Positions 15,384-45,143 are shown, counted from the first letter of the stretch. The stretch is DNA of 64,000 nucleotides from Chloroflexota bacterium (GCA_021325635.1 JAJPGV010000034.1:60745-124744), one strand, 5' to 3'. Made by a program: numbers and translations. The notes: generated by a model from the letters alone, not told the origin.

Positions 15384-15408
15384 GCGCGGACGCCGGCGCT
15401 GATCTCCG

Positions 15409-16756: not shown

Positions 16757-19021
16757 TCACCCAATCTCCACCGGAAAGAGGTGGCTGGTCTCGTCGGGAT
16801 TCGAGGCGAGGGGCAGGCGCTGGCCGGAGGCGAGGTCGTAGACACCGACTTCGGCCTGGTACCGGCCGGGGGACAGGCTCGACACGTCGAGGACGTGGGT
16901 GTCGGGTACCAACTGCCCGGTGGGGAGCAGCGACGTGGGGTACCGGGCGCCGTCGGGTTGGCTGTCGTGCTGCGCCGCGAGCTTATCGTCCGGGCCCAGC
17001 AGGTGCACGAAAACCGTATAGTCCTTGCCGATGGGGCCTCTCGCCTGCCAGACGAGCGTGGCGCGGAGGCTCTTGCCGTCCTGCGTGAAGCTGTGGCCGG
17101 CCAGGGTGAGGTTATCGGCGAAGGGCAGACTATCCGAGACCGACGGCGATGTCGTCCGCGGCGGGAGCAGCATGAAGCGGCCCACTTCGGTCGTATCGTT
17201 GGCCAGGGGCGTGTCGCTTGCGCCTACTGCCGGCAGGTGGGGGCCACCTTCCACCGGCACGAAGATGCTAAGCAGCAGCGTATGCACCCCGCTTGCAGGT
17301 GGCTGCACGATGAGCCGGTGGCGGTCTCGCACCGTGAGGCCCGGCGTCCACTGACTGGTGGGCGCGCGTCCTTCGTCTGGCGTCGACAGCTCCTTCCAGG
17401 TGATGACGCCGTGGCTGTCGATCGCGGCCAGGTCCACCAGGTAGTCGAGGTCCATCGGGCGCAGCGCGCGCCAGACGAGGTCCACCGACACCGTATCTCC
17501 GGGATGGATGCCGGTGGGCGAGGGCGTTGAGTAGCCCACCAGCTCCAGTGCATCGCCGAAGCGCACCTGTGCCTGGTGCTCGATCGGGCCCTTATAAGGG
17601 GCAGGGAAGGCATAGGCAGGAACGAGCACCAGCAGCAGCGCACCCACGTTCAGTCCGACCAGGCCCAGGGGCAGGACCAGCAGGGCCTGCCAGCGACGCA
17701 CCAGTCGTTGGAGCCCGATCACGATGAGCAGCGTCAGCGCGGGAAAGGCGGGCAGCACCAGGCGCCACTGGTCGGCAGCGGCGTTGACCTCTATCCAGCG
17801 CGCCAGGGACAGGATGAACGCCACCGGCCACAGCAGCACCAGCAGGTGGCACAGGACGGCCGGGCTGCCGGCCAGCTGCGGCAGCGAGCGACGCATCAGC
17901 TGCCGCGCGGCAGCCACCGCCGCGGCCGCCAAGCCGAGCAGGCACAGCGCGTCGAAGGTGAAGTAGGCAATCGGGCTGACCGGTACGTTGGTCCAGCCGA
18001 AGACAGCCAGGGCGGTGCTGGTCCTCCCGAAGAGCTGGGCCAGTGCGGGCAGCAGGCCGATCGGCTGGGGTCGGAGCATCTGGCCGACCGCGGCGAGCAT
18101 CGGTTCCCAGCCCAGTGGATCTCCGAGCAGGATCCAATTGCGGGCGTACCACCAGCCGGCGATGCACAGAACCATGACGCCGACTGCGCCTGCCTGCAGC
18201 AGGGCTCGGAGTTGACGGCCCTGCAGCCAGCGCAGGCCCATGAAGCCGACGGCCAGCGCCACCGCGCTGAGGCCGCTCAGCTTGGCAAGCGCGGCATTGC
18301 CCAGCACCAGCCCCAGCAGCACTGTCTCCGTCCAGGGCGAGCCGTGATTCAGCCAGCGGAGCAGCAGGTACAGCGCCGCGGCGGACAGCCCGGCGATAGC
18401 GTTGTCCGCGTTCAGCACGCCGGAGATGAACAGCACCTGCGGGATCAGGCCCAGGATCGCCGCGGCGCACCATGACAGGGCGGGGGGTAGTCGCAGCTCC
18501 CGCGCGCTGCCGTAGGTAGCCAGTACGGCCAGCAGCAGGAACACCAGGTTGGCCAGCCGCATCGCGTGCAGCCGCAGCATGGTGCCCGTCCATGGGAAGG
18601 CTTCCTCGGCGCGGTGGTAGTAGAGGTTGACGTTGCCGTAATCGGTACGGTCCTGGAACGGATTGTGGTGATCCCACACGGGCACGTTGTCCGGCTGCGA
18701 CGGCGCCAGCCGAGCGATCAGCGATTCGAAGGCGTAATAGAACGGAGGCTGGCCGAACTCGGGATCTTGTCCGTTGACGCCCTGCAGCGGCAGTCCCTGT
18801 CCGCTGACCAGGCGATCGACGTAGTTGTAGTGGCCTGGCTCATCGGGCGCCTCGAAGGCCGGCGCCGCCACCGAGTACGCCGCGGCGAACAGGCAGCACA
18901 CAACGATGAGCGCAGCCAACGCCGGCCACCCCGAGGACCGGCCGCGTGCCGCGGTGGCTGTTGCCTCGGTTTGAGCGCCCGTGATCCGTGCCTGCGAGGA
19001 GGTGGAGACGGCTAAGCCCAT
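16757..19021 (-). CDS. GT-C fold membrane glycosyltransferase-like protein, paralog 2
   Basis: 754 aa. Hydrophobic N-terminal two thirds with a PDEPGHY loop motif; C-terminal modules share the DYTVFVHLL motif with the other two paralogs. Confidence 0.7.
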   Translation of the reverse strand: MGLAVSTSSQARITGAQTEATATAARGRSSGWPALAALIVVCCLFAAAYSVAAPAFEAPDEPGHYNYVDRLVSGQGLPLQGVNGQDPEFGQPPFYYAFESLIARLAPSQPDNVPVWDHHNPFQDRTDYGNVNLYYHRAEEAFPWTGTMLRLHAMRLANLVFLLLAVLATYGSARELRLPPALSWCAAAILGLIPQVLFISGVLNADNAIAGLSAAALYLLLRWLNHGSPWTETVLLGLVLGNAALAKLSGLSAVALAVGFMGLRWLQGRQLRALLQAGAVGVMVLCIAGWWYARNWILLGDPLGWEPMLAAVGQMLRPQPIGLLPALAQLFGRTSTALAVFGWTNVPVSPIAYFTFDALCLLGLAAAAVAAARQLMRRSLPQLAGSPAVLCHLLVLLWPVAFILSLARWIEVNAAADQWRLVLPAFPALTLLIVIGLQRLVRRWQALLVLPLGLVGLNVGALLLVLVPAYAFPAPYKGPIEHQAQVRFGDALELVGYSTPSPTGIHPGDTVSVDLVWRALRPMDLDYLVDLAAIDSHGVITWKELSTPDEGRAPTSQWTPGLTVRDRHRLIVQPPASGVHTLLLSIFVPVEGGPHLPAVGASDTPLANDTTEVGRFMLLPPRTTSPSVSDSLPFADNLTLAGHSFTQDGKSLRATLVWQARGPIGKDYTVFVHLLGPDDKLAAQHDSQPDGARYPTSLLPTGQLVPDTHVLDVSSLSPGRYQAEVGVYDLASGQRLPLASNPDETSHLFPVEIG

Positions 19022-19029
19022 GGCTGCGC

Positions 19030-21039
19030 TCAGGCCTTCTCCAGCGTCACTGGCACTGCGTCGTTTTCCAGTCGAGCGCCGGACGCGTCCGTGGCGGTGG
19101 CCCGAGAGTTGGGATTCGCACGGTCGTAGAGGCCAACGACCACCCGCGTCACCTGGCCTTCGAGATCCGGCGGCACCGGGATGCTGCGCTCGTCATGGAT
19201 GACGTCGCCGGCCTGCCAGCGCTGGGGCGGAAACATCCCGCCCATAGGGTAGCCGTCGTTCTGGACGAGTGGCTGGGGTCCACTGCCGAGCACGTGCACG
19301 AACACGGTGTAATCACCGGGCGCGGGCGCCGTCGCTCGCCAGGCCAGGCGCACCAGCAGCGCGCCGCCCGACAGCCGTGCGCGGGCGTCCTCGAGCGACA
19401 CCCAGCCACCAAGCTGCGCCACGCTTGCCGTGGCTGGGCCACGATCCACCCGGCCGGCGTACTCCAATCTGACGTGGCCTGGCTCGTAGCGGGCGACGTA
19501 CACGCCTCCACCTTTGCGGAAGGACTGCTCGAGCTCATTCAGGCCGGCACGCGGGCCCTGCATCCCGTAGGCCTCCTCCCAAGGGCGGGCGATATCGTCA
19601 TATGACAGCGAGGTGATGGGCAGTCGCTGGCCGCGCGCCGCCTGGACGGTGAGATCGAGACCGAAGTAGTCCGGCAGCATGGTCACGCCCGAGTGGCCCA
19701 GCAGGAAGTCCTGCTCCTTGGGCCCAATGAAGGCCGGCACGTTGACGTACGTCCGTCCGGCGTCCGGCCCTGGCTGGGTGGCGGTGTCGATGAGTTGGCT
19801 GACGACACTGGCCCCCTGCGCCAGCAGCCGCTCGCGCCGCGCGATGAAGCCGTAGCTCTCGACCAGGATCGCCGCGACGCAGGCCAGCCCAGTCGCGGCA
19901 GCGGCTAGGCGCAGCGCGGCAGCTGGGGTCACTCTGAGCGCGGCCGAAGGAGCAAGCGCAGCCGCCCACAGCAGGGCGATTCCGGCCGAGCTGAGGTACA
20001 GCAGGCGCGGAGCGTCGATGACGTAGTTGGGCCAGGGGAGCAGCAACGTCGCCGGGACGAGCGCCCCCGCGAACCACAGCAGCGCCAGCCCGGACACGAG
20101 CAGGCGCCGCCGCAGCGCGCTCAGCGCCAGCAAGACCAGCATGGTTACGGCCGCAGCCAGCAGCACTGTGCCGGCGTCGTCCCTGAAGCGCGGCAGCGAT
20201 GCCAGGCGCATGGCGTCGGGGTAGGCCAGTCCCTGCAGGAAATAGGTGGCGTTCAGCCGGATGGAGGGGCCGTCCAGCTTGAAGGCCGATGGCCAGCGCG
20301 GCACCGCCAGCCAGACGCCGACGAACGCCACCAGCTCGAGCGCAAACCAGCCGAGCACAGGACTGAGCCGGCCGGGCTGCTTTCGAAGCAGCAGCAGGAT
20401 CTCGATGCCGGTGAGGATCGGCAGCAGGGCAACCGTGCTTTCGTGGGTCAGGAAGGCGAGCCCGGCTGTCCCCAGGGCGCCCAGCAGCGCCTTGCGGCTG
20501 TGGCGCACGCGTGCATCCCAGTACAGCACGGCGCTGGCCAGCACGAACAGCGCGGCCAGGGAGTGGAAGATGGAATCCACGAAGCCGACCACCTGGTAGC
20601 TGAGCGGGAACAGGAGGAAGAGCGCTGCCGCGCACAGGCCGGCGGGCCCATCGAGCGCTCGCCGGCCAAGCTGGTACACCAGCCAACCACAGGCGATGTG
20701 GCTGGCTAGCGATAGCCCGTGCAGCACGAGCGGGTCATTTCGACCCAGGATGACGAAGCACAGCTTCCACAGCAGCAGCGTGACCGGACGGTAGTAGGGC
20801 GAGCCGCCGGCGCTGGTCAGGATCTCCAGCCAGCCGCGATCCGACGCCCGCGGCAAATCCAGCGCCGCGTCGAACATGATGCCGGCGCCGAGCGATCCCG
20901 CGTACGCGGCGATACCGATGCCGATGCAGACCAGCCAGGGAAGCAGCGTGGCCAACGTGCGGCCCAGGCCCGCGCGAGCCTTTGCCTTCGCTGGCAAAGA
21001 ACGTTCGAGGGGCGCCAGCCCGGTCTGCTGGGCGATCAC
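19030..21039 (-). CDS. GT-C fold membrane glycosyltransferase-like protein, paralog 3
   Basis: Multi-TM N-terminal region and C-terminal module with DYTVFVHVLG. ORF-track start 21303 overlaps cobM and is Arg-rich; trimmed to GTG at 21039, 19 nt after the cobM stop. Confidence 0.65.
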   Translation of the reverse strand: MIAQQTGLAPLERSLPAKAKARAGLGRTLATLLPWLVCIGIGIAAYAGSLGAGIMFDAALDLPRASDRGWLEILTSAGGSPYYRPVTLLLWKLCFVILGRNDPLVLHGLSLASHIACGWLVYQLGRRALDGPAGLCAAALFLLFPLSYQVVGFVDSIFHSLAALFVLASAVLYWDARVRHSRKALLGALGTAGLAFLTHESTVALLPILTGIEILLLLRKQPGRLSPVLGWFALELVAFVGVWLAVPRWPSAFKLDGPSIRLNATYFLQGLAYPDAMRLASLPRFRDDAGTVLLAAAVTMLVLLALSALRRRLLVSGLALLWFAGALVPATLLLPWPNYVIDAPRLLYLSSAGIALLWAAALAPSAALRVTPAAALRLAAAATGLACVAAILVESYGFIARRERLLAQGASVVSQLIDTATQPGPDAGRTYVNVPAFIGPKEQDFLLGHSGVTMLPDYFGLDLTVQAARGQRLPITSLSYDDIARPWEEAYGMQGPRAGLNELEQSFRKGGGVYVARYEPGHVRLEYAGRVDRGPATASVAQLGGWVSLEDARARLSGGALLVRLAWRATAPAPGDYTVFVHVLGSGPQPLVQNDGYPMGGMFPPQRWQAGDVIHDERSIPVPPDLEGQVTRVVVGLYDRANPNSRATATDASGARLENDAVPVTLEKA

Positions 21040-21058: not shown

Positions 21059-21841
21059 TCATCCGCTGGATCGGAAGAGGTGCACGTAGTCCGGTGCGTA
21101 GAGCCGCGATCGCTCGTCCGACCGCTCGCCGAAGGCGGCGCCAACGAGAATGATGGCCTGCCGTGTGAATCGCGCCGCGCGCACCTTGCGCCCGATGTCG
21201 GCCAGCGTGCCGCGCACGATCTTCTCGTCCGGCCAGGAGACTTTGTACACCACCGCGCAGGGCGTCGTCGCCGGATAGCCGGCCGAGACCAGATCGCGTA
21301 CAACCTTGCCCATCATCGCCGCGCTCAGGAAGATGGCCATGCTGGCCTGGTGAGCGGCCAGCGTCCGCAGCTCTTCGAGCGCCGGAACGGCCGAAGCACG
21401 GCCCGAGCGCCGCGTCAGGATAACCGTCTGGCTGACGTTCGGCACGGTCATTTCCACGCCGAGCCGTGCCGCGGCGGCGAAGGCCGATGACACGCCCGGG
21501 ACGATCTCGTAGGGAACGCCTTCGCGCTCCAGGATGGCGATCTGCTCGTTGATGGCGCCATAGATCGATGGGTCGCCACTCTGCAGCCGCACCACGCGCT
21601 TTCCTTCGCGAGCCGCGGACAGCATGAGCTCCAGGGTCTGCTCCAGGGTCAGAGAGGAACTGCCGTGGATGTCCGCGTCCGGCCTGGCGAACTCGCACAC
21701 CCGCGCGTCCACCAGCGAATCGGCGAACACGATCACGTCAGCCTGCTCGATGAGCGCCCTGCCTTTGAGGGTGAGGAGCTGAGGATCGCCCGGTCCTGCC
21801 CCCACGAAGTGGATGGTCGCGGGCGGGCCGGCGGTGGTCAT
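21059..21841 (-). CDS. cobM: Precorrin-4 C11-methyltransferase (CobM/CbiF)
   Basis: 260 aa tetrapyrrole methylase (HFVGAGPGDPQLLT ... SGDPSIYG); start overlaps the cobI stop by 4 nt. Confidence 0.9.
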   Translation of the reverse strand: MTTAGPPATIHFVGAGPGDPQLLTLKGRALIEQADVIVFADSLVDARVCEFARPDADIHGSSSLTLEQTLELMLSAAREGKRVVRLQSGDPSIYGAINEQIAILEREGVPYEIVPGVSSAFAAAARLGVEMTVPNVSQTVILTRRSGRASAVPALEELRTLAAHQASMAIFLSAAMMGKVVRDLVSAGYPATTPCAVVYKVSWPDEKIVRGTLADIGRKVRAARFTRQAIILVGAAFGERSDERSRLYAPDYVHLFRSSG

Positions 21842-22527
21842 CGGCGTGTGACGATCATCTGGCCGAAGTAGTCGAGCGTCTGCTTACGCAGGGTGGTTAC
21901 GTCATGCACGATGCGCTGCTGCGGCCAACCTACCCGCTCGACGTAGATGGCGTCGTCGGTTCGACCGGTGGTGTTGAGCGCTTTGAGGACCGCTTCCAGC
22001 GCCATGCTCACCTTCAGGATCACGATCGTGTCGAAGGTGGCCAAGGCGTGCAGCACCTCACCCGTGGCCGGAACGATGGCTGCGCGGTCGTTGCCTTCCA
22101 CCAGAGGGACGTGCGCCGCTGCCGCTCCGGCGGTGACGGACGACACCCCGGGGACGATCTCGACTTCCACGTCCGGATAGCTCTGGGCGAGCAGCGGGTA
22201 GACGTGCACGAAGGTGCTGTACAGCATGGGGTCGCCCTCGGTGACGAAGGCCACCGTTTGGCCGCCGCGGGCCGTCTCGGCCAGTGTCTGGGCGTGCTGT
22301 CGCCAGCGCTCCAGGTTCTCTTCGCGCGACTTGGACATACGAAAGGGCATGTCTCGCACCTCGGCGCCGCTGCCGAGGTCGGCCAGGATCTTTCGAGCCA
22401 GGCTCTCGTGGTCGTCCCGGTTGGGCACAAAGATGACCTGCACTTCGCGCAGCAGCCGCCGGGCTTTGACGGTCAGCAGCTCGGGATCGCCAGGGCCCAA
22501 CCCGATGGCGTAGATGGTGCTCCTCAT
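21838..22527 (-). CDS. cobI: Precorrin-2 C20-methyltransferase (CobI/CbiL)
   Basis: 229 aa tetrapyrrole methylase (YAIGLGPGDPELLT); 4-nt overlap with the cobL stop. Confidence 0.9.
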   Translation of the reverse strand: MRSTIYAIGLGPGDPELLTVKARRLLREVQVIFVPNRDDHESLARKILADLGSGAEVRDMPFRMSKSREENLERWRQHAQTLAETARGGQTVAFVTEGDPMLYSTFVHVYPLLAQSYPDVEVEIVPGVSSVTAGAAAAHVPLVEGNDRAAIVPATGEVLHALATFDTIVILKVSMALEAVLKALNTTGRTDDAIYVERVGWPQQRIVHDVTTLRKQTLDYFGQMIVTRR

Positions 22528-23741
22528 CGATTCATTGCTGAGTCTACGGCAGCCGGGACCACCGCGATCCAGACCGGATTCAGGGCGCTGAGGCGCCGCC
22601 CGCCGTCCATGGCCTTGGCCCTGGCCACGTTGAGCTGCACGACCTCCGCGGTGGGATGGCGGTCGAGCAGCAGGCCGAGGTGCTCCAGCAGCGCCAGGTT
22701 GGCCACGAGCGGCGGGTCGATTGCATCCAGCAGCTCGGCCAGGCGTCCCCCGCTGCCGCCAAGGAACACCGAGCTCGGGGCCGGCAGGCCGGCGAGCGCC
22801 TCAGGCGCTTGTCCGGCGACGATGGTGACGTTGCCGGCTCCGTGGCGCTTGCAGTTGCGCTCGATGCAGGCCAGCTGCTCCGGGTCGCGCTCGATGGCGA
22901 AGACGTGCCCCCGCGGCATCAGCCGCGCCGCTTCGACCGCCAACGCTCCCGAGCCGGCCCCGACGTCCCACAACACGCCGTCGGGAGCCAGCCGCAGCTT
23001 CGACAGCGTGACTGCCCGCACCTCGGCCTTGGTGATCTGCCCGCGAACGCTCTCAAACCGATCGTCCGGCAGGCCGAAGGTCAGCCTCGCCGCGGTCTGG
23101 TCGCGCAGCAGCAGCAGCACGTTGAGCGGATCGAAGCGCTCCTCAGGCAGCTGCCACAGGCTGGACTCGACCACTCGCTGCCGCGTGCCCCCCAGGCGCT
23201 CGCATACAACCGCGCGGCAGTCTTCCATGCCGGCGTCTCGCAGTCGCGCGGCAATGACGCCCGGCGTGGACTGCGAGTCGGTCAGGATGGCTACAGTTCT
23301 GCCGCTGAGCGCCGCCGGCAGCAGCTCCTCGATGGGGCGCCCGTGGGCGGATAGGACGACCGCCTCATGCCAGGGCTCACCGATGGCCGCGAAAGCCAGC
23401 TGCACGCTGCTGGGACCGGGCAGGACGCGCACCTGGCCTGTCCCGAGCGCCGAGACCAGCGTATGGCCGATGCCGAACAGCAGCGGATCGCCGGATGCCA
23501 GGACGACTACCCGCTCGCCCTTGTCCATGGCGTCGCGAATGGCGGCGACGGACTCGCCTGCAGCGGCGCCGATCTCGATGCGCCGAGCTTTGTGATCGGC
23601 GAAGAAGCCCAGCTGGCGGCGTCCGCCGGCCAGCACAGTGGCTTCTCGGATCAGCGCCAGGGTGGCTGGGCTCAGGCTGCCCGCGCCACCGTCGGACAGG
23701 CCGACTACGATCACCGGGACGGTGCCGCCTGCGTCAGCCAC
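22524..23741 (-). CDS. cobL: Precorrin-6Y C5,15-methyltransferase, decarboxylating (CobL; CbiE/CbiT fusion)
   Basis: 405 aa; N-terminal tetrapyrrole-methylase half and C-terminal SAM-MTase half with VLWDVGAGSG motif. Confidence 0.9.
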   Translation of the reverse strand: MADAGGTVPVIVVGLSDGGAGSLSPATLALIREATVLAGGRRQLGFFADHKARRIEIGAAAGESVAAIRDAMDKGERVVVLASGDPLLFGIGHTLVSALGTGQVRVLPGPSSVQLAFAAIGEPWHEAVVLSAHGRPIEELLPAALSGRTVAILTDSQSTPGVIAARLRDAGMEDCRAVVCERLGGTRQRVVESSLWQLPEERFDPLNVLLLLRDQTAARLTFGLPDDRFESVRGQITKAEVRAVTLSKLRLAPDGVLWDVGAGSGALAVEAARLMPRGHVFAIERDPEQLACIERNCKRHGAGNVTIVAGQAPEALAGLPAPSSVFLGGSGGRLAELLDAIDPPLVANLALLEHLGLLLDRHPTAEVVQLNVARAKAMDGGRRLSALNPVWIAVVPAAVDSAMNR

Positions 23742-24825
23742 GCCCCAGAACCTGGCCGTCGAAGTCGAACATGACCGTCTCCACCTGCACCCTGCCCTGC
23801 ACCAGATCTTCGGATGTCCGCGACACGCGGCGGCAGATGACTTCGAATAGACCTCGTAATCCGGCAGGCTGAACCAGGTCCTGCACGTGGCGGGCGGTGT
23901 TGGCGTGCCGGATCCGATCGGCCAGTGCCGGTCCGGCGCCGGCTTCGATGGCCAGCTCCGCCAGGAAGTCGGGGTCGACCTTGTTGCCTGCGACGTGGGT
24001 CATGAAATGGCCCTGGGCAATCTTGGATAGCTTGCCGATCATGCCCGCCAGGGTGGCGCGCCGGATCCTGCGCAGGGCGCAGCGCTTGAGCGCGTGGCCG
24101 GTGAACTCGCCCATCTCCACGAACGCGATCTCGGGCAGGTGCGGGAACAGCGCCTGACTGAACTTCTCGCTGCGGCCGCCGGTGCTCAGCACCAGCTCCA
24201 GCTGTCCGTTGGCCGCGGCCACGTCTACGGCCTGCTCGACGCTGGCCCGCCACGAAGCCGTGGAATAGGGCCGGACGATGCCGGTGGTCCCGAGGATGGA
24301 GATGCCGCCGAGGATGCCGAGCCGGCCGTTCAAGGTCTTGCGGGCCATCTGCTCCCCGCCGGGCACGGAAATTTCGACCTTCACCGGGCGGTCGGTGACC
24401 GCCGCCACCGCGTCCCCGATCATTCGCCGCGGCACCGGATTGATGGCCGGTCCGCCGACTTCCAAGCCCAGCCCTTCACGGGTCACCACGCCCACGCCTT
24501 CGCCGCCGGCCAGCTCGTACTGCTCGGCCCAGGATACGCGGGCGCGGATCTCGGCGCCGTGCGTGCAGTCCGGGTCGTCGCCGGCGTCCTTGATCACCGA
24601 GCACATGACCTGGCCTTCGCCCATCTCGCAGCGGTGGATGGTAAAGGTGACGTCCATGCCGGCTCGGAGGTGAATGGTCACCTCGGGCACCTCATGGCCC
24701 GAGACGAGCGCCTGGGTGGCTGCCCTGGTCGCGGCTGCCGCGCAGGCGCCGGTGGTGTAGCCGGTGCGCAGACCGCGACGGCGGGGCGCCGGTGGCAGGC
24801 CGTCCGAGGTATCGTCTTCGATCAC
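23734..24825 (-). CDS. cbiD: Cobalt-precorrin-5B C1-methyltransferase (CbiD)
   Basis: CbiD N-terminal signature LRTGYTTGACAAAA and full-length similarity. Start trimmed to GTG 24825, overlapping the cobH stop (GTGA); the ORF-track start 25365 is an Arg-rich shadow. Confidence 0.85.
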   Translation of the reverse strand: MIEDDTSDGLPPAPRRRGLRTGYTTGACAAAATRAATQALVSGHEVPEVTIHLRAGMDVTFTIHRCEMGEGQVMCSVIKDAGDDPDCTHGAEIRARVSWAEQYELAGGEGVGVVTREGLGLEVGGPAINPVPRRMIGDAVAAVTDRPVKVEISVPGGEQMARKTLNGRLGILGGISILGTTGIVRPYSTASWRASVEQAVDVAAANGQLELVLSTGGRSEKFSQALFPHLPEIAFVEMGEFTGHALKRCALRRIRRATLAGMIGKLSKIAQGHFMTHVAGNKVDPDFLAELAIEAGAGPALADRIRHANTARHVQDLVQPAGLRGLFEVICRRVSRTSEDLVQGRVQVETVMFDFDGQVLGRG

Positions 24826-25448
24826 GTTTGGCCGGGCTGCGAGCCGGCCAACAGCAGCAGCGCGTTCATCGCTGCCGCTGCAACCGGTGATCCCCCGCGG
24901 CTGCCCTCCACGGTTATGAAGGGCGTCGCGCGCTTCATCAGCTCCTGCTTCGACTCCGCCGCCGCGACGAAGCCCACGGGTACGCCGATGATCAGCGCCG
25001 GCTGGCAGATGCCGGCATCCACCATGTCCAGCAGCGCCAGCAGCGCCGTGGGGGCGTTGCCGATGACGGCCAAACCGCCTTCCAGGTCGCTGGCCAGCTG
25101 GCGCATGCCCGCGGCGGCTCGGGTAATGCCGGCCGCCGTCGCGTCGGTGGAAAAGTCCGTAGACACCGCCACACGCACGGGGTTCGCGCACGCTCGCAGC
25201 CCGGTCGCCACCATGCGTACGTCGCACACGATCGGCGCCCCGGCGCGGATGGCTTCCAGGCCCGCGTCGACCGCATCGGGATGAACGTGGGCCAAGCCAG
25301 CCAGCGCCAGGTCGCCGGCGGCGTAGACCATGCGCTTGACCACGTCTCGCGCTTCCGAGGTCCATCCGCTGCAGGCAGGAATGGCGCCCTCGACCAGCTG
25401 CAGGCTGCGCGCTTCGATCTCCACCGGCGGTAGGCCGTAGCGGTCCAT
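24822..25448 (-). CDS. cobH: Precorrin-8X methylmutase (CobH/CbiC)
   Basis: 208 aa (MDRYGLPPVEIEARSLQLVEG ...). ATG at 25448 overlaps the cbiX stop (TGATG). Confidence 0.85.
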   Translation of the reverse strand: MDRYGLPPVEIEARSLQLVEGAIPACSGWTSEARDVVKRMVYAAGDLALAGLAHVHPDAVDAGLEAIRAGAPIVCDVRMVATGLRACANPVRVAVSTDFSTDATAAGITRAAAGMRQLASDLEGGLAVIGNAPTALLALLDMVDAGICQPALIIGVPVGFVAAAESKQELMKRATPFITVEGSRGGSPVAAAAMNALLLLAGSQPGQT

Positions 25449-26254
25449 CAGACTGCGGTCAGACACATGGCTCCCCAGGCGCAGTTGACGCCGGGCATAC
25501 GGCAGCCCATGCCGGCGCGACAGGGGCATAGCCCGGCCCGCGCTTCTTCGATGCGCTGCAGGAACAGGTCGAAGATCAGCGGATGCAGGCCCATGTGGCT
25601 GGCCACCTGCACCTCCGCGCGCGCGTCCACCGCCTGAACGCTGATGCGCTTGGCCAGCACCCCCGTGTTCAAGAAGTAGGGCACGACCAGCACGCGGCGG
25701 GCGCCCAGCCGAAAACAGCGGTCGATGCCTTGGGGCACGCCGGGCGGCGCGACGCTCACGAAGCACGATTCCACCCAGCCATAGCGGTTGCGATCCCAGA
25801 GCATGCGCGCGGTCTTGTGCAGGTCGGCGTTGGCTTCCGAGCTGAGGCTGCCGCGACCGACCAGCAGCACCGCCGTATCCGGACCGGGTTCGAATGGCGC
25901 CAGACGGTCCTCGATCACGCGCAGCAGCCGCTCGTCCACGCCCAACGGCCCGGCCAGCGTGACGCGAAGCTCCGGATGCCGCGCTCGAGCCAGCTCCAGC
26001 TGCTCCGGCATGTCGTCCCGCGTATGACCGGCAAAAAAGAGCAGCGCAGGCAGCCCCACAATGTCCGTGACACCGCGCGCCGCGGCCCGGTCGAACGCGG
26101 TCTGCACGTCCGGCAGCGTCTCGCCCGGATACTCGAGCACGCCAGCTTCCACATGCTCGCCGGTGCGCCGGCGAAGACCCTCGACGTAGCCCAGGAATTC
26201 GGCCGTTCCCTCGGGATCCTTGGTGCCGTGGCCCAAGACCACGATCCCCTGCAT
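25448..26254 (-). CDS. cbiX: Sirohydrochlorin cobaltochelatase, long form (CbiX-like) with Cys-rich C-terminal tail
   Basis: Two CbiX-type halves (MQGIVVLGHGTKDPEG ... VLLVGRGS) and a C-terminal Cys cluster (CPCRAGMGCRMPGVNCAWGAMC). Start trimmed to ATG 26254. Confidence 0.8.
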   Translation of the reverse strand: MQGIVVLGHGTKDPEGTAEFLGYVEGLRRRTGEHVEAGVLEYPGETLPDVQTAFDRAAARGVTDIVGLPALLFFAGHTRDDMPEQLELARARHPELRVTLAGPLGVDERLLRVIEDRLAPFEPGPDTAVLLVGRGSLSSEANADLHKTARMLWDRNRYGWVESCFVSVAPPGVPQGIDRCFRLGARRVLVVPYFLNTGVLAKRISVQAVDARAEVQVASHMGLHPLIFDLFLQRIEEARAGLCPCRAGMGCRMPGVNCAWGAMCLTAV

Positions 26255-26288
26255 GGCGGCCGTCAGCGCGCCCTCGGAGCCGTCGGCC

Positions 26289-28406
26289 TCAATTGCCCCG
26301 ACCCAGCGCGCCGCGCACGACGCCGGCCACACGGCTCGCGTCCAGCTCTTCGAGTCGCAGGTACTGCCCGCCCATGTCGGCCGCCAGCGTCCGCGCCAGC
26401 CCGAGCCGCAGGCCCGGGCCACCTTCGGTATCGATGACCACCGACTGGATGCGCTTGTGCGCGAATTGCGCGCCCAGCAGGCGCGACTCAGCCACGGGGT
26501 CACCGCCCAGCAGCGAGACGTTGGGCCGTCCGTCCGAGATCAGCACGAACAGCGGTACGGCGTCACGATGCAGCGTCTTGTGGCGGTCGATCGTCACCAG
26601 CCCAAGCTGCAGGGCGTGGCTTAGGGGGGTACGGCCGCCGGTAGGCAGCTCGCGCAGCTGGCGCTCGGCCAGATCGACGCTGTTAGTCGGCGGCAGCAGC
26701 ACCTCGCCGAACCGACCACGGAAGGCGATCATACCCACCTCGTCGCGCTTCTGGTAGGCATCGAGCAGCAGCGACATGACCGCGCCCTTGGCCGCCGCCA
26801 TGCGGTCCATGGCTGCCATCGAGCCGCTGGCGTCCACGGCGAACAGGATCAGGTTGGCAAGCTTCGTCTCGCGGACCTTGACCCGAACGTCCTGGGCCAT
26901 TACGGCGACCTTTCTTGCGGCCGCCTTCCTGTCCCGCTGTCCCGGCGCGGACGAGGCAGGGTCCGTTCGCTGCTGAGCCCGCCGCAGGGCTGACGCCCGC
27001 AGGGTAGCGTCGAGCGCGAGGTCTTGCACCTCGCCGTCCGGCTCTCGGCTGCCGACGTAGTGCCCCTGCCGGCCCGAGAGGCGCAGCTTGGTCCTGCGGC
27101 CGGCGTGTGGCTGCGTGACGCGCTCGGCCTTGGAGGCTCCCAGTGGTCGCGGCTGCAGCCGCTGTCCGATGTCGAACACCCGGTCTTCGGTGTCCCCTCC
27201 AGCCGGGCCATCGCCACCGCCGAGGCCCTCGTCGCCATCCGGGCGGTCGAGGTGCTGACGGATCGTTTGGTCGAGCTGCTCGCGGTCCGCTTCGGGGGAC
27301 TGGAAGGGCTGACGCCGGCGGCGATGAGGCAGGGCCAGCTCGGCGGCCTGGCGCACGTCGTCGTCGTTGACCTCGACGCGTCCGTTGTAGGCGGCAATGG
27401 TGATGGCCGTCTTGTACATGACGATGTCGGCGCGCAGCCCGTCGACCTGGAAGCTCGAGCAGATGTGGGTGATGAGATCGAGCATGCGTTCGTCGAGCTG
27501 CACCTTCCCCAGCAGCCGTTGGGCGTGGGCGATGCGTCGCCGCTCGGCCCTCTCGGCAGGCTGCCAGGTATGCGCAAAGCGCGCCGGGCTGCGCTCGAAG
27601 GCAATGCGGCGCCGCACTACCTGCGCGCGGTCGGCGGGCGGCAGGTCTCCCGCGACGTCCACCGAAAGCGCGAAGCGGTCCAGCAGCTGCGGGCGCAGGT
27701 CGCCTTCCTCGGGGTTCATGGTGCCGACCAGCAGGAACTGCGCCGGGTGCTGGAAGGAGATGCCCTCGCGCTGCACGTAGTTGCGGCCCATGGCCGCGGC
27801 GTCAAGCAGCACGTCGACCAGGTGGTCGTTCAGCAGGTTGACCTCGTCGATGTACAGGATGCCGTGATTGGCGGCCGCCAGCAGTCCCGGCTTGAAGCGC
27901 ACGCTGCCCTTGGCCAGCGCACGGCCAACGTCCAGACTGCCGACTACACGATCGTCGGTCGCGCCGACAGGCATCTCCACGATCTCGACTGCGCGGCGCG
28001 TGGACGGGAGCGACAGCGCCGGCTTGGGGGCCCTCACGGGGGTGAGGGGCATGGGCTCCAGGGGTGGATCGGTCTCAACAGGGGGTGGCGCCGCGCGTTC
28101 GTGCTGCTTGGACACCTTCTTGGCTCGCCGGTCGGCCTCCTGGCGGTGCTCGGCCTGCAGCGGGCAGGACTCGCCCGGATGGCAGTTGTACGGGCAGCCG
28201 GGCGTGACCTCGATCTCCGGCAGGAGGTTGGCCAGGGCACGAACCGCGGTCGACTTGGCCGTGCCCTTCTCGCCGCGGATCAGCACGCCGCCGATCTTGG
28301 GGTTGATGGCGTTCAGGATCAGCCCGAGCTTCATCTGCTCCTGGCCTACCAGGGCGGTGAAGGGAAAGACGCAGCCCGCGCCGGAACTCCCTGCGCGGTC
28401 ACTCAC
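26289..28406 (-). CDS. Chelatase ATPase, fused ChlI-like AAA+ and ChlD-like vWA domains (CobN partner)
   Basis: 705 aa. N-terminal AAA+ with Walker A (GEKGTAKST) and Mg-chelatase subunit I-like sequence; acidic/Pro-rich linker; C-terminal vWA domain with MIDAS motif (VDASGSM). Confidence 0.85.
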   Translation of the reverse strand: MSDRAGSSGAGCVFPFTALVGQEQMKLGLILNAINPKIGGVLIRGEKGTAKSTAVRALANLLPEIEVTPGCPYNCHPGESCPLQAEHRQEADRRAKKVSKQHERAAPPPVETDPPLEPMPLTPVRAPKPALSLPSTRRAVEIVEMPVGATDDRVVGSLDVGRALAKGSVRFKPGLLAAANHGILYIDEVNLLNDHLVDVLLDAAAMGRNYVQREGISFQHPAQFLLVGTMNPEEGDLRPQLLDRFALSVDVAGDLPPADRAQVVRRRIAFERSPARFAHTWQPAERAERRRIAHAQRLLGKVQLDERMLDLITHICSSFQVDGLRADIVMYKTAITIAAYNGRVEVNDDDVRQAAELALPHRRRRQPFQSPEADREQLDQTIRQHLDRPDGDEGLGGGDGPAGGDTEDRVFDIGQRLQPRPLGASKAERVTQPHAGRRTKLRLSGRQGHYVGSREPDGEVQDLALDATLRASALRRAQQRTDPASSAPGQRDRKAAARKVAVMAQDVRVKVRETKLANLILFAVDASGSMAAMDRMAAAKGAVMSLLLDAYQKRDEVGMIAFRGRFGEVLLPPTNSVDLAERQLRELPTGGRTPLSHALQLGLVTIDRHKTLHRDAVPLFVLISDGRPNVSLLGGDPVAESRLLGAQFAHKRIQSVVIDTEGGPGLRLGLARTLAADMGGQYLRLEELDASRVAGVVRGALGRGN

Positions 28407-28412
28407 AGCTCG

Positions 28413-31400
28413 TCATGTCTCCGTCCTTACCTCCAGCGCGGCTTCCATCTGCAGGTATGCCCCCTGGAGGGCATCGCGCTGCTCCTGCGAGGGATTTTTC
28501 CACATTCCACGCTCTATGGCTTCGAGCAGCCGCTCGGCGATATTGCGCAGCGCCCAGGGGTTTTTCTCGGCGAAGAAGGCCTGCATCGCCGGGTCCTGGA
28601 CGTAAGCCTGGGTAGTCCGCTCGTACATCCAGTCCTCAACCACCTGGGCCGTGGCGTCGTAGCCGAACAGGTAGTCGACAGTAGCGGCCAGCTCGAACGC
28701 GCCCTTGTAGCCGTGGCGCTTGATCGACTCGATCCACTTGGGGTTGATCACGCGACTGCGAAAGACGCGGCGGGCCTCGTCGTCCAGGTCGCGCACGCGC
28801 ACCAGCGCGGGATTGGCGCTATCCCCGAAGAACTGCCGCGGATTCTTGCCGGTAAGGGCGCGAATCGTGGCGATCATCCCGCCGTGGTACTGCATGTAGT
28901 CGTCGCTGTCGAAGATGTCGTGCTCGCGGTTGTCCTGGTTCTTGGTGGCAATGGAGATCTCGCCGAAGCGCTGCTCGAACTGTGGCCGGGCGGGCTTTCC
29001 GTACTCTTCGCGCGTATACGCGAAGCCGCCCCAGGCGGTGTAGACCTCGGCCAGGTCCTGGTCCGAGGCCCAGTTGCGCGCGTCGAGCAGCGGAAGGATG
29101 CCGGCGCCGTAGGTTCCCGGCTTGCTGCCGAAGATGCGATACAGAGCCTCCGGGGTCGATCCGTCACGGCGATAATGCGCCGCCACAAGATTGCGCTCGT
29201 CGCTCTCGTCCAGGCGGGCCACCAGCCGGAAGGCGTCATCCAGGAGCTGCACCAGGTTGGGGAAGGCGTCGCGGAAGAAGCCGCTGATGCGCACCGTGAC
29301 GTCGATGCGCGGCCGGCCCAGCTCTTCAATGGGGATCAGCTCCACGCCGGTCACGCGGCGGTTCTCCTTCATCCACACCGGCCGTACGCCCAGCAGCCAC
29401 AGGATCTCGGCGACGTCGTCGCCCTGGGTGCGCATGGCCGAGGTGCCCCACACGACGATGCCCACCGACTCGGGGTAGCGGCCCTCCTCGGCCAGGTACT
29501 TGGCCAGCAGCGCGTCCCCGAGCTGACGGCCGATGTCCCAGGCAGCGGGCGACGGCAGGGTCTTGGGATCGACCGAATAGAAGTTGCGCCCGGTAGGCAG
29601 GACGCTGGCCATGCCCCTGGTCGGCGCCCCCGATGGGCCAGGCGGAATGAATCGACCTTCGAGCCCGGCCAGCAGGTTGTCGATCTCCTCGCCGGTTCGC
29701 GCCAGTGCCGGGATCAGGGATTGCTTGACATAAGAACTGGTCGAGCATGCATCCGCCGCGACGGACAGTGCTTGCTCGGCGTCCTGCATGCCGAGAGCGT
29801 CGGCGACGGCCCGGTCCACCGGCTGTCCGTCGACGATCGCCTGCACCAGCTGATGGTTGCGAGCTTCGATGTGCTCGACGGCGTCACCATTGGAGCGCAC
29901 GCCGTCCAACGGAGGCCCGGAATACGGAGCGCCACGGTCGGCCAGCAGCACGGCGTAGTCGGGAATACCCAGCGCCTCGGCCATCGAGCTGCGCAGCGAG
30001 GGGGCCTCGACGTTGTCCAGCCGGGTGAGGGCCAGCAGCAGATCGACCAGCTGTTCGCCTGCCGGCGCCTGCCCGAGGACGTGCAGGCCGTCCCGGATCT
30101 GGGAGTCTTTCAGCTCACACAAGTAGCCGTCGACGTGCAGCAGGAAACCGTCGAAGTCCTCAGGCAGCTCGTCCTCGCCCAGGTCGTGGTGGAGCTGTGC
30201 CTGCACGACTGCATCCCAGATCTGCCCGCGGATGATGGGCGCCTTGCGTGGGTCCAGCGTCTGCACCTGGTAGTACTCGTCCATCAGCTGCTCGATGCGC
30301 ACGATCTCGTTGTAGGCATCGGCGGTCGTCATGGCCGGAATGAGGTGGTCGACGATGGCGGCGTGGCTGCGCCGCTTGGCCTGCGCGCCCTCGCCGGGGT
30401 TGTTGATGATGAACGGGTAGAAATGCGGCAAGTCGCTGATGGCCAGCTCGGGGTAGCAGCTTGGCGACAAGCCCAACGACTTGCCGGGCAGCCATTCCAG
30501 CGTGCCGTGTTTGCCGACGTGCACAATCGCGTCGGCCTGAAAGACGTCACGGATCCAGCGGTAATAGGCCAGGTAGTGGTGCGTCGGCGGCAGATCCGGC
30601 GAGTGGTAGATGGCGATGGGGTTCTCTCCGAACCCGCGCGGCGGCTGCACCCCCAGAAAGACGTTGCCCAGCAAGATCCCAGGCATGGCGAGGGAGGGCT
30701 GACCCCTCTCCGCCAGGAACACCGTTCCGGGCGGAGAGCCCCAGGCTTCGACCAGCTCGCGCTGGTTGGTAGGTGGGAATTGGTCGAACCAGGCGCGATA
30801 CTGCGCCGCGCTGGCGTGGCCGGCGGCGTCCCGGAGCTGCTGCTCGGTAAGCATCTCGCGGTCGTTGGAGCAGCGATCGATGAGCTGGAACACCAGCTCG
30901 TCGCCCGATTCCGGGAGGTCGCCGGTGTCGTACCCAGCCCCTTGCATGGCCTTCAGCACTTCGAGCACCGAGGCCGGCGTATCCAGCCCCACGGCGTTGC
31001 CGATACGGGCGTTCTTGGTGGGGTAGTTGCTGAGCACGAAGGCCACGCGCTTCTGGGCGTTGGGTGTGCGCCGCAGCCTGGCCCAATTGCAGGCCAGGCG
31101 GGCGAAGGCGTCCACGCGCTCGCGGTCGGCCACGTAGCGTAGGACGGGACTGCCCAAGAGCTCATCCTGCGCCAGCTCCTCCTTGAACGACACGGGCACG
31201 GTGATGATGCTGCCGTCGAACTCCGGCAGCGCGACGTTCATGGCCGTGTCGATGGGGCTCAGGCCGGCCGAGCTGCGCTGCCAGGCCTCACGCGAGCTGG
31301 TGCTCACGATGGCTTGAAGCACCGGCACGTCCAGCCGCTGCAGCCACTCCACGGAGCCGGCGCCCATGGAGAAGCTGAGTGTGTTGATGATGGCGTCGAC

Positions 31401-32228
31401 CCTGGCCTCGCGCAGCAGCGGCTCGATCTGGGCTGCGTGCTCCGGCTTGAGTGAATAGACGAAGATCGGCAGCGGCCGGCATCCCAGCTCCTGCAGCCGC
31501 TCCGCCAGCGCATCCACGAAGTCCGTGTTGCCACTCATCCAGTGGGCCCGATAGAACAGGAGGGCAATCGCCGGCGAGAGTGCCGAGTGCCGCGTGCCGG
31601 CGAGAGTGCCGCGTGCGGAGTGCCGGCGAGAGTGCCGAGTGCCGCGTGCCGCGTGCGGAGTGCCGGGCGCCGAGCCTTCTTCCCCGCTGTCAGGCTGGGC
31701 GTCGAGCGAAGCATCCTCGCCCTCCCAGTCGGCGTTCGTGGCCTGGTCGGGCTCGCCAGCTACAGCTCCGGCGCGCTGGTACAGCCCGAACCACGGCAGC
31801 TCGGCGGGCGGCTCAGCGGCCTCTCCGGACAGTCGGAGCAGCAGGTTGCGGACATTGGCCGCGCCGCCGTGGGACACGTAGGCGAAGACCTCGTGCACCA
31901 ACTCAGGAGGGGCTGTGCTGAGCGCGGTCAGCTCCGGGTCCGGGACGGAGTCGCCGGCGCACGCGATGAAGGGCACGTTCCTGCGCACACAGCAGTCGCG
32001 GATCAGGTCGAAGCCCGCCTCCAGCGTCCGGCGGCCGCCCAGCAGGCGCACGACGACGGCGGTCTGGGCGCGTTCCACCGTGTCCGCGACGAAGCGCTGC
32101 AGGACGCGGTCAGAGCTGAGCGAGGCCACGCTGCAGGCGCGGACGGCGGGGACTCCCTTCGGCAGGGCCCGAACCACGTTGGACAGTGTGAGGATGTCGG
32201 TGTCCGCGGTGGTCAAAAAGACGATCAA
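28413..32228 (-). CDS. cobN: Cobaltochelatase large subunit CobN
   Basis: 1271-aa ORF with CobN-like N-terminus (IVFLTTADTDILTL) and length. Apparent TTG start at 32228 preceded by GGGAGAG at 8-nt spacing. Confidence 0.9.
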   Translation of the reverse strand: MIVFLTTADTDILTLSNVVRALPKGVPAVRACSVASLSSDRVLQRFVADTVERAQTAVVVRLLGGRRTLEAGFDLIRDCCVRRNVPFIACAGDSVPDPELTALSTAPPELVHEVFAYVSHGGAANVRNLLLRLSGEAAEPPAELPWFGLYQRAGAVAGEPDQATNADWEGEDASLDAQPDSGEEGSAPGTPHAARGTRHSRRHSARGTLAGTRHSALSPAIALLFYRAHWMSGNTDFVDALAERLQELGCRPLPIFVYSLKPEHAAQIEPLLREARVDAIINTLSFSMGAGSVEWLQRLDVPVLQAIVSTSSREAWQRSSAGLSPIDTAMNVALPEFDGSIITVPVSFKEELAQDELLGSPVLRYVADRERVDAFARLACNWARLRRTPNAQKRVAFVLSNYPTKNARIGNAVGLDTPASVLEVLKAMQGAGYDTGDLPESGDELVFQLIDRCSNDREMLTEQQLRDAAGHASAAQYRAWFDQFPPTNQRELVEAWGSPPGTVFLAERGQPSLAMPGILLGNVFLGVQPPRGFGENPIAIYHSPDLPPTHHYLAYYRWIRDVFQADAIVHVGKHGTLEWLPGKSLGLSPSCYPELAISDLPHFYPFIINNPGEGAQAKRRSHAAIVDHLIPAMTTADAYNEIVRIEQLMDEYYQVQTLDPRKAPIIRGQIWDAVVQAQLHHDLGEDELPEDFDGFLLHVDGYLCELKDSQIRDGLHVLGQAPAGEQLVDLLLALTRLDNVEAPSLRSSMAEALGIPDYAVLLADRGAPYSGPPLDGVRSNGDAVEHIEARNHQLVQAIVDGQPVDRAVADALGMQDAEQALSVAADACSTSSYVKQSLIPALARTGEEIDNLLAGLEGRFIPPGPSGAPTRGMASVLPTGRNFYSVDPKTLPSPAAWDIGRQLGDALLAKYLAEEGRYPESVGIVVWGTSAMRTQGDDVAEILWLLGVRPVWMKENRRVTGVELIPIEELGRPRIDVTVRISGFFRDAFPNLVQLLDDAFRLVARLDESDERNLVAAHYRRDGSTPEALYRIFGSKPGTYGAGILPLLDARNWASDQDLAEVYTAWGGFAYTREEYGKPARPQFEQRFGEISIATKNQDNREHDIFDSDDYMQYHGGMIATIRALTGKNPRQFFGDSANPALVRVRDLDDEARRVFRSRVINPKWIESIKRHGYKGAFELAATVDYLFGYDATAQVVEDWMYERTTQAYVQDPAMQAFFAEKNPWALRNIAERLLEAIERGMWKNPSQEQRDALQGAYLQMEAALEVRTET
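31571..31666. repeat. Imperfect tandem repeat (period about 26 nt, roughly 3.5 copies) inside cobN
   Basis: Units of the form cggcgagagtgccg(agtgccg)cgtgc repeated head to tail; encodes the low-complexity stretch ARGTRHSRRHSARGTLAGTRHSALSP in a CobN linker. Confidence 0.7.
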
Positions 32229-32231: not shown

Positions 32232-32420
32232 TCCAACTCTCCCTTTGTTGCGAAGCTCAGCGAGTTGGTAGCCCGAGGCTGTTTTCTGCCTCTCACAGTA
32301 GCGCCACTGGGCCGGGGTTGCACCGGCTTGCCAGCGCCCGGGCGACGTATTTTGGATTGTACGCGATAGGCCGCCGGCTGCCGGCTGGCACGGCGCTTGC
32401 GTCAGCGCCCACCCAACGCA
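32232..32420 (-). promoter_or_regulatory. Candidate cobalamin riboswitch-like leader upstream of cobN (partial match only)
   Basis: Minus-strand leader contains GGTGCAACCCCGGCCCAGTGGCGCTACTGTGAGAGG, resembling the conserved 5' core of cobalamin riboswitches as I recall it, directly upstream of a B12 operon. A canonical B12-box (GCCAGGAGACCTGCC-like) is not evident. Confidence 0.3.
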
Positions 32421-32445: not shown

Positions 32446-32844
32446 ATGCAAGCGAACTACAAGCCACTGGAGAAAAAGCTCCTGCAGGAACGCGAGCGCG
32501 TCCAGGGGCTGATGCAGGCCGAAACTGAACATCGCAGCTCGTTGAGTGAGACGGGCGACCTGGAGCGTTACGGCAACCATCCGGGCGACGAAGGCACCGA
32601 GACCTTCGAGAAGGAGAAAAGCCTGGCGCTGCAGAGCAACCTGCAGATCATCCTCGACGAGGTCGAGCATGCGCTGCACAAGCTCGAGGCCGGTACCTAC
32701 GGGACGTGCGACGAGTGCGGCGCCGAGATCCCCTACGAGCGGCTCGAAGTCCGTCCCCAGGCCGCGCTGTGCGTCCGCTGCAAGAGCAAGGTCGAGCACA
32801 CGGTGATGGTCAGCAGTCTGGAGCGAGCCAACAGCACGTTCTGA
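32446..32844 (+). CDS. DksA/TraR family C4-type zinc-finger protein
   Basis: C-x2-C-x17-C-x2-C zinc finger (CDECGAEIPYERLEVRPQAALCVRCKSK) after a coiled-coil-like N-terminus; start taken as ATG 32446 downstream of AGGAGG. Confidence 0.8.
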   Translation: MQANYKPLEKKLLQERERVQGLMQAETEHRSSLSETGDLERYGNHPGDEGTETFEKEKSLALQSNLQIILDEVEHALHKLEAGTYGTCDECGAEIPYERLEVRPQAALCVRCKSKVEHTVMVSSLERANSTF

Positions 32845-34124: not shown

Positions 34125-34197
<73 letters not shown>

Positions 34198-45134: not shown

Positions 45135-45143
45135 TGCCCTCCG

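Follow-up and report, generated by a model that had tools for sequence, protein, structure and literature searches.

The window analysed here is a 64,000-nucleotide stretch of DNA from a Chloroflexota bacterium (GCA_021325635.1, JAJPGV010000034.1:60745-124744), which carries a cobalamin biosynthesis operon of eight tightly coupled genes on the minus strand at positions 21059-32228 (Table 1). The operon encodes both CbiX and CobN, the latter next to a ChlI/ChlD-type protein (ChlID). Gene identities were based on Pfam and NCBIfam scores, which were mostly above the curated cut-offs. For CbiL and CbiF, no NCBIfam sub-model that separates 'cobalt-' from metal-free substrates reached its cut-off. 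An earlier note, made from the sequence alone, had described a tight operon with GTGA, TGATG and ATGA junctions, and each junction could be read in the DNA: stop and start codons overlapped as TGATG at cbiX/cbiC, as GTGA at cbiC/cbiD, as GTGGCTGA at cbiD/cbiET and as ATGA at both cbiET/cbiL and cbiL/cbiF. Non-overlapping spacers were present between cobN and chlID (6 nt) and between chlID and cbiX (34 nt). The genes listed in that note, including the anaerobic-signature cbiD, were all recovered, but cbiC had been overlooked, and the operon has eight genes rather than seven. A 543-amino-acid (aa) open reading frame (ORF) at 23734-25365 was discarded as a longest-ORF artefact, since the DNA shows cbiC in another frame, starting from the TGATG of cbiX, and then cbiD from the GTGA. 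The G+C content of the window was approximately 66%, and the closest taxon-named homologues of its CbiX were from Chloroflexota. An identical CbiX protein was present in a 305-kb metagenome contig from JGI (P0001) and an identical CbiL in a Logan contig from SRR5581483.

Table 1. Genes of the cobalamin operon and the candidate regulatory element in its leader (window coordinates).
Feature	Description	Position	Strand	Details
cobN	large catalytic subunit of class I ATP-dependent cobaltochelatase	28413-32228	-	TTG start, 1271 aa; TIGR02257 1284 bits (cut-off 822), PF02514 1384 bits
chlID	ChlI-like AAA+ motor and ChlD-like VWA/MIDAS in one polypeptide	26289-28406	-	GTG start, 705 aa; TIGR02442 729 bits (cut-off 779)
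cbiX	long two-domain class II sirohydrochlorin chelatase, Cys5 C-terminal tail	25448-26254	-	ATG start, 268 aa; PF01903 142 bits in two stretches
cbiC/cobH	(cobalt-)precorrin-8 methylmutase	24822-25448	-	208 aa; PF02570 213 bits, E 3e-63
cbiD	cobalt-precorrin-5B C1-methyltransferase	23734-24825	-	GTG start, 363 aa; NF000849 476 bits (cut-off 348), TIGR00312 424 bits
cbiET/cobL	fused C5 and C15 methyltransferase/decarboxylase	22524-23741	-	405 aa; TIGR02467 (CbiE) 172 bits and TIGR02469 (CbiT) 119 bits, both above cut-off
cbiL/cobI	C20 methyltransferase	21838-22527	-	229 aa; TIGR01467 232 bits (cut-off 163)
cbiF/cobM	C11 methyltransferase	21059-21841	-	260 aa; TIGR01465 341 bits (cut-off 260)
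cobN leader	candidate short, divergent cobalamin riboswitch	32234-32358	-	RF01482 (AdoCbl) 32.6 bits (gathering cut-off 50), local E 1.6e-4

CobN was an unambiguous orthologue of the CobN subunit of the Pseudomonas denitrificans CobNST complex. Among solved structures it matched CobN best (7c6o, 1133 bits; 9uk9, 925 bits), followed by ChlH (499 bits) and the dechelatase HmuS (330 bits). As in CobNST, the partner combines AAA+ and VWA components, but the window is without CobS, CobT, cobW, cobG and cobF, and a single protein, resembling the ChlI/ChlD and TIGR02442 families rather than CobS/CobT, takes the place of CobS and CobT. A profile search resolved this protein into AAA+, AAA_lid_2, Mg_chelatase and VWA_2 domains. 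Its N-terminal domain was similar to ChlI (8osf, E 5e-100), its C-terminal domain was similar to BchD (2x31), and its functional motifs were intact: Walker A (GEKGTAKS, residues 45-52), Walker B (ILYIDE, 183-188), the arginine-finger region (LRPQLLDRF, 237-245) and the MIDAS motif (DASGSM, 525-530). The earlier note had spoken of CobN with a fused ChlI-ChlD ATPase; an AAA+ plus VWA protein was indeed present, but it is encoded by a separate gene, with the usual layout of a ChlD/BchD medium subunit, and is not fused to CobN.

Cobaltochelatases composed of CobN and ChlD/ChlI-type proteins are known, and some chlD genes yield both a small and a medium subunit by programmed frameshifting (PMC9227772). 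A single ChlI/ChlD-type protein in place of CobS and CobT was proposed by Rodionov 2003, as cited in that paper. In the frameshifted systems (Antonov 2020; Kuznetsov et al. 2022, PMC9227772), cobN likewise adjoins a chlD-type gene without a separate small-subunit gene nearby. However, the chlID of the window was intact in one frame, and a programmed frameshift producing a ChlI-like small subunit was rejected because the AAA+ domain and the linker contained no in-frame slippery heptamer (X XXY YYZ). The only such site, codon 664, falls in the VWA domain. No A/T run was present anywhere in chlID. From homology and motif conservation, CobN-ChlID is predicted to be a genuine ATP-driven cobaltochelatase of class I, forming a second module ahead of the cbiX core.

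CbiX was modelled by AlphaFold2 as two alpha/beta domains, with a mean predicted local distance difference test (pLDDT) score of 93 for the chelatase fold. In a 70-sequence alignment, His9 of the N-domain was near-invariant and His77 was invariant; at the C-domain positions the window protein had GRGS and TG in place of histidines. The Cys-rich tail reported in the earlier note could be specified as C243-x-C245-x5-C251-x6-C258-x5-C264, without a His run (DNA 25448-25540, minus strand). The motif C-x-C-x5-C-x6-C-x4/5-C was kept in approximately 40 close homologues, hereafter the near clade, and the tails of more distant relatives were His-rich or combined MNCDxC with poly-His, the pattern known from B. 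megaterium CbiXL. The tail was modelled with low confidence (pLDDT 84 falling to 44), and the geometry of the cysteines had no readable model. A MxCxxC 4Fe-4S motif is named for B. megaterium CbiXL (ref. 109 of PMC7242693), and the Cys5 tail probably binds an Fe-S cluster. We have not encountered a description of this tail variant.

A placement of CbiX with siroheme ferrochelatases, raised in the earlier note, was not borne out. In a neighbour-joining tree that included B. subtilis SirB as the sole characterised SirB, the window protein was placed inside a Chloroflexota clade together with CbiX proteins encoded in cob loci, and SirB was a long-branch outgroup to every cob-embedded CbiX. Assigning a ferrochelatase function from the structural match to SirB was rejected as uninformative, because SirB lies outside the cob-embedded clade and no CbiXL structure is available for comparison. 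The Pfam-scanned neighbours of cbiX in the window included no gene for a siroheme-dependent enzyme.

The genomic context of cbiX was compared across 85 loci with flanks of up to 10 kb on each side; the 70-homologue alignment served as query against a single genome for each GTDB species, the best 80 loci were kept and annotated with tblastn, and loci fetched earlier were added. The order cobN-chlID-cbiX-cbiC-cbiD-cbiET-cbiL-cbiF was also found in four near-clade loci: a 243-kb JGI contig (L003), the NCBI metagenome-assembled genome (MAG) GCA_019237235.1 (L005) and two GTDB Chloroflexota MAGs (L006 and L007). Protein identity with the window was 60-80% (60-68% for CbiX), and cbiG and cbiH were absent from all four operons. 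Pairwise ratios of nonsynonymous to synonymous substitution rates (dN/dS) against these relatives were 0.14-0.43 for all eight genes, with 0.03 for one 27-codon cbiD fragment, although dS was near saturation and the values are therefore rough. All eight genes, both chelatases included, are under purifying selection.

A sister Chloroflexota clade, with CbiX proteins 45-48% identical to that of the window, showed the operon to be modular. On a 3-Mb contig (L002), a cobalamin riboswitch was followed by cbtB-cbtA-cobN-chlID-cbiX-cbiC-cbiD-cbiET-cbiL-cbiF and a fused cbiGH. In L086, cobN, chlID and cbiX were followed by a 749-aa CobA-HemD-CbiC triple fusion replacing cbiC, and cbiGH was followed by cbiA, cbiP, a 604-aa fusion of a BluB-like nitroreductase with CobT, cbiB and an aminotransferase gene. 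The operon in L087 (fur-cbiX-cbiC-cbiD-cbiET-cbiL-cbiF-cbiGH-cbiA) was without cobN and chlID, and a further contig had the order cobQ-cobO-cobN-chlID-cbiX-cbiA-cbiC. The adjacency of cobN and chlID, proposed in the earlier note as a check, was kept in seven contigs (L002, L003, L005, L006, L007, L086 and the P0118 contig). Taken together, L087, L002 and L086 indicate that cbiX alone suffices in a close relative and that CbiG, which marks the early-insertion route, belongs to this operon family. The cobN-chlID pair has the character of an optional module immediately 5' of cbiX.

A gene for a fur-family regulator was located directly 5' of cbiX in two Chloroflexota contexts, namely L087 (4123-5269) and the P0036 contig, where a CbiX 59% identical to that of the window adjoined fur near cbiMQO. 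This pairing points to metal-responsive regulation of cbiX at loci that have neither the riboswitch nor the cobN module.

Another cob or cbi gene was present in 83 of the 85 CbiX loci, and the two exceptions (L071 and L079) were cut by a contig end. Within the analysed flanks, 29 loci contained cobN, 19 contained chlID, and 72 contained cbiG or cbiH. Co-occurrence of cbiX and cobN was observed in every Streptomyces locus retrieved (cobN-chlID-cobO-cobB-cobI ... cobM-cobL-cbiG::cbiH-cobH-cbiX) and in many alphaproteobacteria (cobN ... cbiX-cobH-cobL-cobI-cbiG-cobJ-cobM, plus cbiD). Long CbiX proteins of the same clade, accompanied by CbiG-like genes, were noted in cobN-bearing alphaproteobacteria (L015, L017, L044, L060, L069 and others) and in Streptomyces (L039-L084).

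A permissive Rfam scan of the 215-nt leader of cobN yielded the candidate riboswitch listed in Table 1; at the gathering threshold, no cobalamin riboswitch, RF00174 included, was detected in the whole window. The 3' hairpin of the leader (CCAACUC...GAGUUGG) spans the ribosome-binding site, GGGAGAG. The same element was present 5' of cobN in L003 (4215-4339) and L006 (about 1990-2113), and 5 of the 31 pairs in the fold common to the three leaders were compensatory. A search of 1.56 Mb of loci with a covariance model (R1), built solely from these three leaders, recovered the leaders themselves and a match in L002 at 2165-2311, overlapping the RF00174 riboswitch there. There were also ten weaker matches in Firmicutes loci, and the seven that were checked all lay inside RF00174 riboswitches scoring 104-124 bits. 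All 11 non-self matches were on the operon strand. Given this reciprocal confirmation, the cobN leader was treated as a short, divergent cobalamin riboswitch that falls below the Rfam cut-off. The whole operon, including cbiX and cobN-chlID, would then be repressed by B12, which fits B12 synthesis and not siroheme supply. A riboswitch-core scan for other loci of the regulon gave zero matches in both the genome and the metagenome contig sets.

These observations bear on the earlier suggestion that CbiX serves another tetrapyrrole pathway and is merely co-regulated here. This is disfavoured by the cob linkage of 83 of the 85 loci, by the occurrence of cbiX without cobN-chlID in L087, by the outgroup position of SirB and by the riboswitch leader.

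Several steps of corrin ring synthesis were not represented. A Pfam scan of every sizeable ORF in the 64-kb window revealed no cbiH/cobJ, cbiJ/cobK, cbiG, cobG, cobF or cobA (uroporphyrinogen methyltransferase), as the earlier note had stated, and no family matching CobZ, CobW, CobS or CobT. A tblastn search with the CbiG, CbiH, CbtA and CbtB of a relative likewise gave no match in the window, and outside the operon the 64 kb held no further cobalamin gene. In the pathway, the CbiH step lies between those of CbiL and CbiF and the CbiG step between those of CbiF and CbiD; CbiJ follows CbiD and precedes CbiE/T. Because the missing steps alternate with encoded ones, the operon cannot be a self-contained sub-pathway; as the encoded genes are also under selection, no reading other than a second locus makes sense. 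CbiJ/CobK (PF02571) was not found in any Chloroflexota cob operon examined, the large L086 operon included, and since large sister-clade operons also lack cbiJ, split loci appear to be normal in Chloroflexota. That the missing steps are encoded elsewhere, one of two options in the earlier note, is thus the best-supported reading, although by indirect evidence: the interleaving of steps, selection, synteny and the sister operons with cbiG-cbiH, one of which also has cobA, argue for it, but the second locus itself was not found.

The combination of chelatases has counterparts in several known systems. Haloarchaea use the cobalt-early route, yet carry cobN and chlID beside cbiX; the authors raised this as an open issue and speculated on salvage (PMC8305020). 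The presence of both routes in aerobic or facultative organisms has been treated as usual (PMC9227772). With these discussions, and with the mix common in Streptomyces, alphaproteobacteria and haloarchaea, the coexistence of CbiX and CobN that the earlier note had singled out is no anomaly. On the Haloferax volcanii plasmid pHV3 (HVO_B0050 chlID, HVO_B0051 cobN, HVO_B0054 cbiX1, cbiH2 and cbiL; PMC8305020), as in the window, a CbiX-based gene set lies beside cobN and a one-piece chlID. However, that cluster is archaeal and plasmid-borne, in an organism with CbiG and CbiH, whereas the window is bacterial and has no cbiG or cbiH at the locus. In the window, moreover, cbiX directly follows chlID and encodes a long form with the Cys5 tail.

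The Streptomyces cob cluster (14 loci; L066 on the Streptomyces sp. HUAS TT11 chromosome) shares with the window cobN, chlID, cbiL, cbiF, cbiET and cbiC, together with a long cbiX that belongs to the same clade. It differs in the last position of cbiX, away from chlID; it also has a fused CbiG-CbiH, and cbiD was not detected in the flank. Firmicutes loci had the arrangement cbiH-cbiX-...-cbiC-D-ET-L-F-G without cobN, which is also that of the B. megaterium cbi operon with CbiXL. In 27 loci of this type, from Paenibacillus, Brevibacillus, Geobacillus, Alicyclobacillus and related Firmicutes, a long CbiX was encoded in the order cbiH-cbiX-(cbiJ)-cbiC-cbiD-cbiET-cbiL-cbiF-cbiG. The core order cbiC-D-ET-L-F, a 5' cobalamin riboswitch and a Cys motif straight after the chelatase fold are common to these loci and the window. 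In contrast to the window, they have no cobN or chlID, carry cbiH, cbiJ and cbiG within the operon, and encode a MxCxxC plus poly-His tail.

We consider it likely that CbiX is the early cobaltochelatase of this organism, that CobN-ChlID is an accessory enzyme driven by ATP, and that cbiH, cbiG, cbiJ and cobA are located elsewhere. At least two cobalamin loci, this operon being one, would then exist in an uncultured, probably aerobic Chloroflexota bacterium. With plentiful B12, the riboswitch in the cobN leader would sequester the ribosome-binding site and switch the operon off; when on, the eight translationally coupled genes would be made. By analogy with its family, CbiX would insert Co2+ into sirohydrochlorin at an N-domain active site formed by His9 and His77. 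The cobalt-containing corrinoid would then be taken towards cobyrinic acid by CbiL (C20), CbiF (C11), CbiD (C1), CbiE/T (C5 and C15, with decarboxylation) and CbiC (methyl shift). The other locus would supply CbiH/CobJ for C17 methylation and ring contraction, CbiG for lactone opening, CbiJ/CobK for reduction, and CobA/SirC before the branch point. The most likely role of CobN-ChlID would be the insertion of cobalt into a metal-free corrinoid, which may resemble hydrogenobyrinic acid a,c-diamide and may be made at low cobalt or imported.

A number of observations weigh against this interpretation. The best solved-structure match of CbiX was the SirB ferrochelatase of B. subtilis (E 2e-28 to 2e-29), the metal specificity of class II chelatases is not readable from sequence, and the near-clade CbiX tail is Cys-rich rather than His-rich. 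No gene for a ChlI small subunit was detected in the window, and this, with the lack of a frameshift signal in the AAA+ domain and linker of chlID, bears on how the ChlID motor would be assembled. The dN/dS values are rough, as stated above, and the leader element was not found in L005, a near relative. A second cob locus was not found either: CbiGH was detected on neither the contig of the window nor that of L003 among the 120 best matches, and the accession neighbours of five near-clade CbiX proteins (MBV8086588, MBV8084909, HEX6511886, MFI5265969 and MDE3074610) included no CbiGH protein. The near-clade operons lack exactly the two steps, cbiGH, in which the early and late routes differ, and the near clade might conceivably have CobG or CobZ, together with CobJ, elsewhere in place of cbiGH.

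The alternative that survives best, although we regard it as unlikely, is that the near clade follows the oxygen-dependent late route, with CobN-ChlID as the working chelatase, cobG or cobZ, cobJ and cobK elsewhere, and CbiX a siroheme or other chelatase left in the operon. The loss of the route-specific cbiG and cbiH would fit, as would the structural match to SirB and the replacement of the relatives' His-rich, metal-storing tail by a Cys-rich one. The organism also looks aerobic, with Rieske ring-hydroxylating dioxygenases flanking the operon, and cobN-bearing alphaproteobacteria likewise retain cbiX and cbiD in their cob clusters. A Paracoccus gene annotated as cbiX encodes a proven siroheme ferrochelatase that uses the C-domain histidines H127 and H187 (PMC4063343). 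However, the window CbiX has the N-domain pair and no C-domain histidines, and the Paracoccus protein gave no match to it by sequence search at E<=0.01. Control by a cobalamin riboswitch also argues against this route, as B12 repression would be odd for siroheme supply. In the near-clade operons cbiX is always located between chlID and cbiC and is under purifying selection, the sister operon L087 has cbiX without cobN, and CbiD is present rather than CobF.

Somewhat less probable still is that the cobN-chlID-cbiX triad forms a functional unit and not a pair of redundant chelatases. CobN-ChlID may, for instance, re-metalate or rescue cobalt-free corrinoids that leak from the CbiX-initiated pathway under cobalt limitation. 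Alternatively, the Cys5-tailed CbiX may sense cobalt or redox state, or deliver cobalt, to CobN and so replace the CobW chaperone, and the loss of cbiG-cbiH in the near clade may mark a third, hybrid corrin route. If true, a functional triad would answer why cobalt-early organisms (haloarchaea, Streptomyces and Chloroflexota) retain the late chelatase.

We find it very hard to sustain that the operon is a decaying remnant of an organism that no longer makes the corrin de novo, or that its genes serve partial remodelling of imported intermediates. Four to five essential ring steps are encoded neither in the window nor in any near-clade contig examined, and no CbiGH appeared on the contig of the window among the 120 best matches, but the ORFs of all eight genes are intact and their junctions coupled, dN/dS is 0.14-0.43 across the four relatives, and synteny is held at 60-80% identity with the riboswitch retained. 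The alternation of missing and present steps would leave no useful partial pathway, and cbiJ is missing even from the large operons of the sister clade, so that split loci look normal here. Equally improbable is that CobN-ChlID acts on a different metal or tetrapyrrole, chelating nickel or magnesium, for example, or working as a HmuS-like dechelatase: members of the CobN/ChlH family with other roles exist, the heme dechelatase HmuS is among the structure matches, and the haloarchaeal cobN-chlID of an early-insertion organism is without an assigned role (PMC8305020), but the equivalog TIGR02257 scored well above its cut-off, the CobN structures outscored ChlH and HmuS by a wide margin, and cobN is first in a cob operon with a cobalamin riboswitch, follows the cobalt transporter genes cbtAB in L002 and lies between cobO and cbiX-cbiA on another contig.

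The operon is flanked by genes of other functions. Divergent from cobN is a gene for a 132-aa DksA/TraR C4 zinc-finger protein (32446-32844, plus strand), which was also present in L003 and L005. On the other side, 19 nt after cbiF, starts a gene for a polytopic 669-aa membrane protein without a Pfam hit (19030-21039, minus strand), with a hydrophobic series in its N-terminal 400 residues, followed by one for a DUF2142/PMT-like polytopic membrane protein (16757-19021, minus strand). Both proteins look like GT-C glycosyltransferases. Neither gene was conserved beside the operon in L003, and a third protein of this kind (PMT_2) is encoded at 336-3035. As the 669-aa gene occupies the position of cbiGH in the sister operons, it was considered as a divergent CbiG-CbiH. 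This was rejected, as there was no Pfam or NCBIfam hit and no tblastn match; the hydrophobic N-terminal region, the DUF2142/PMT neighbour and the lack of conservation in L003 also oppose it.

Further away, a fused electron-transfer flavoprotein (ETF) gene (13470-15467, minus strand; 637-665 aa), with ETF (beta-like) and ETF_alpha domains, adjoins the Rieske ring-hydroxylating oxygenase genes. A ZMP/ZTP riboswitch (49452-49531, plus strand, 59.8 bits) was found directly 5' of purH (AICARFT/IMPCHase, frame 49476-51065), and genes for adenylosuccinate lyase and for an AIR-synthase-related protein lay just 5' of this pair. A class A bacterial RNase P RNA was located at 44782-45136 (plus strand, 286 bits). 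The 5' end of an ORF called from third-position G+C (GC3) at 44114-44947 (minus strand) falls within the RNase P gene, and the true start of this ORF must therefore lie further in. A tRNA gene at 34125-34197 (plus strand) had the anticodon loop CUUCUAA, read as UCU (Arg).

With this operon, an uncultured Chloroflexota lineage of soil type joins the many organisms whose cob clusters encode both CbiX and CobN-ChlID; on its own this is a minor extension. The near clade is set apart by the Cys5 tail of CbiX, by operons that have lost cbiG-cbiH and by a riboswitch too short or divergent for the Rfam cut-offs. Within a single phylum, the loci form a natural series with and without cobN-chlID, with and without cbiG-cbiH, and with His-rich or Cys-rich CbiX tails, which could be used for testing the role of the late chelatase in a cobalt-early pathway. 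As early and late markers are mixed far beyond this window, calls of the aerobic or anaerobic pathway from chelatase marker genes are unreliable.

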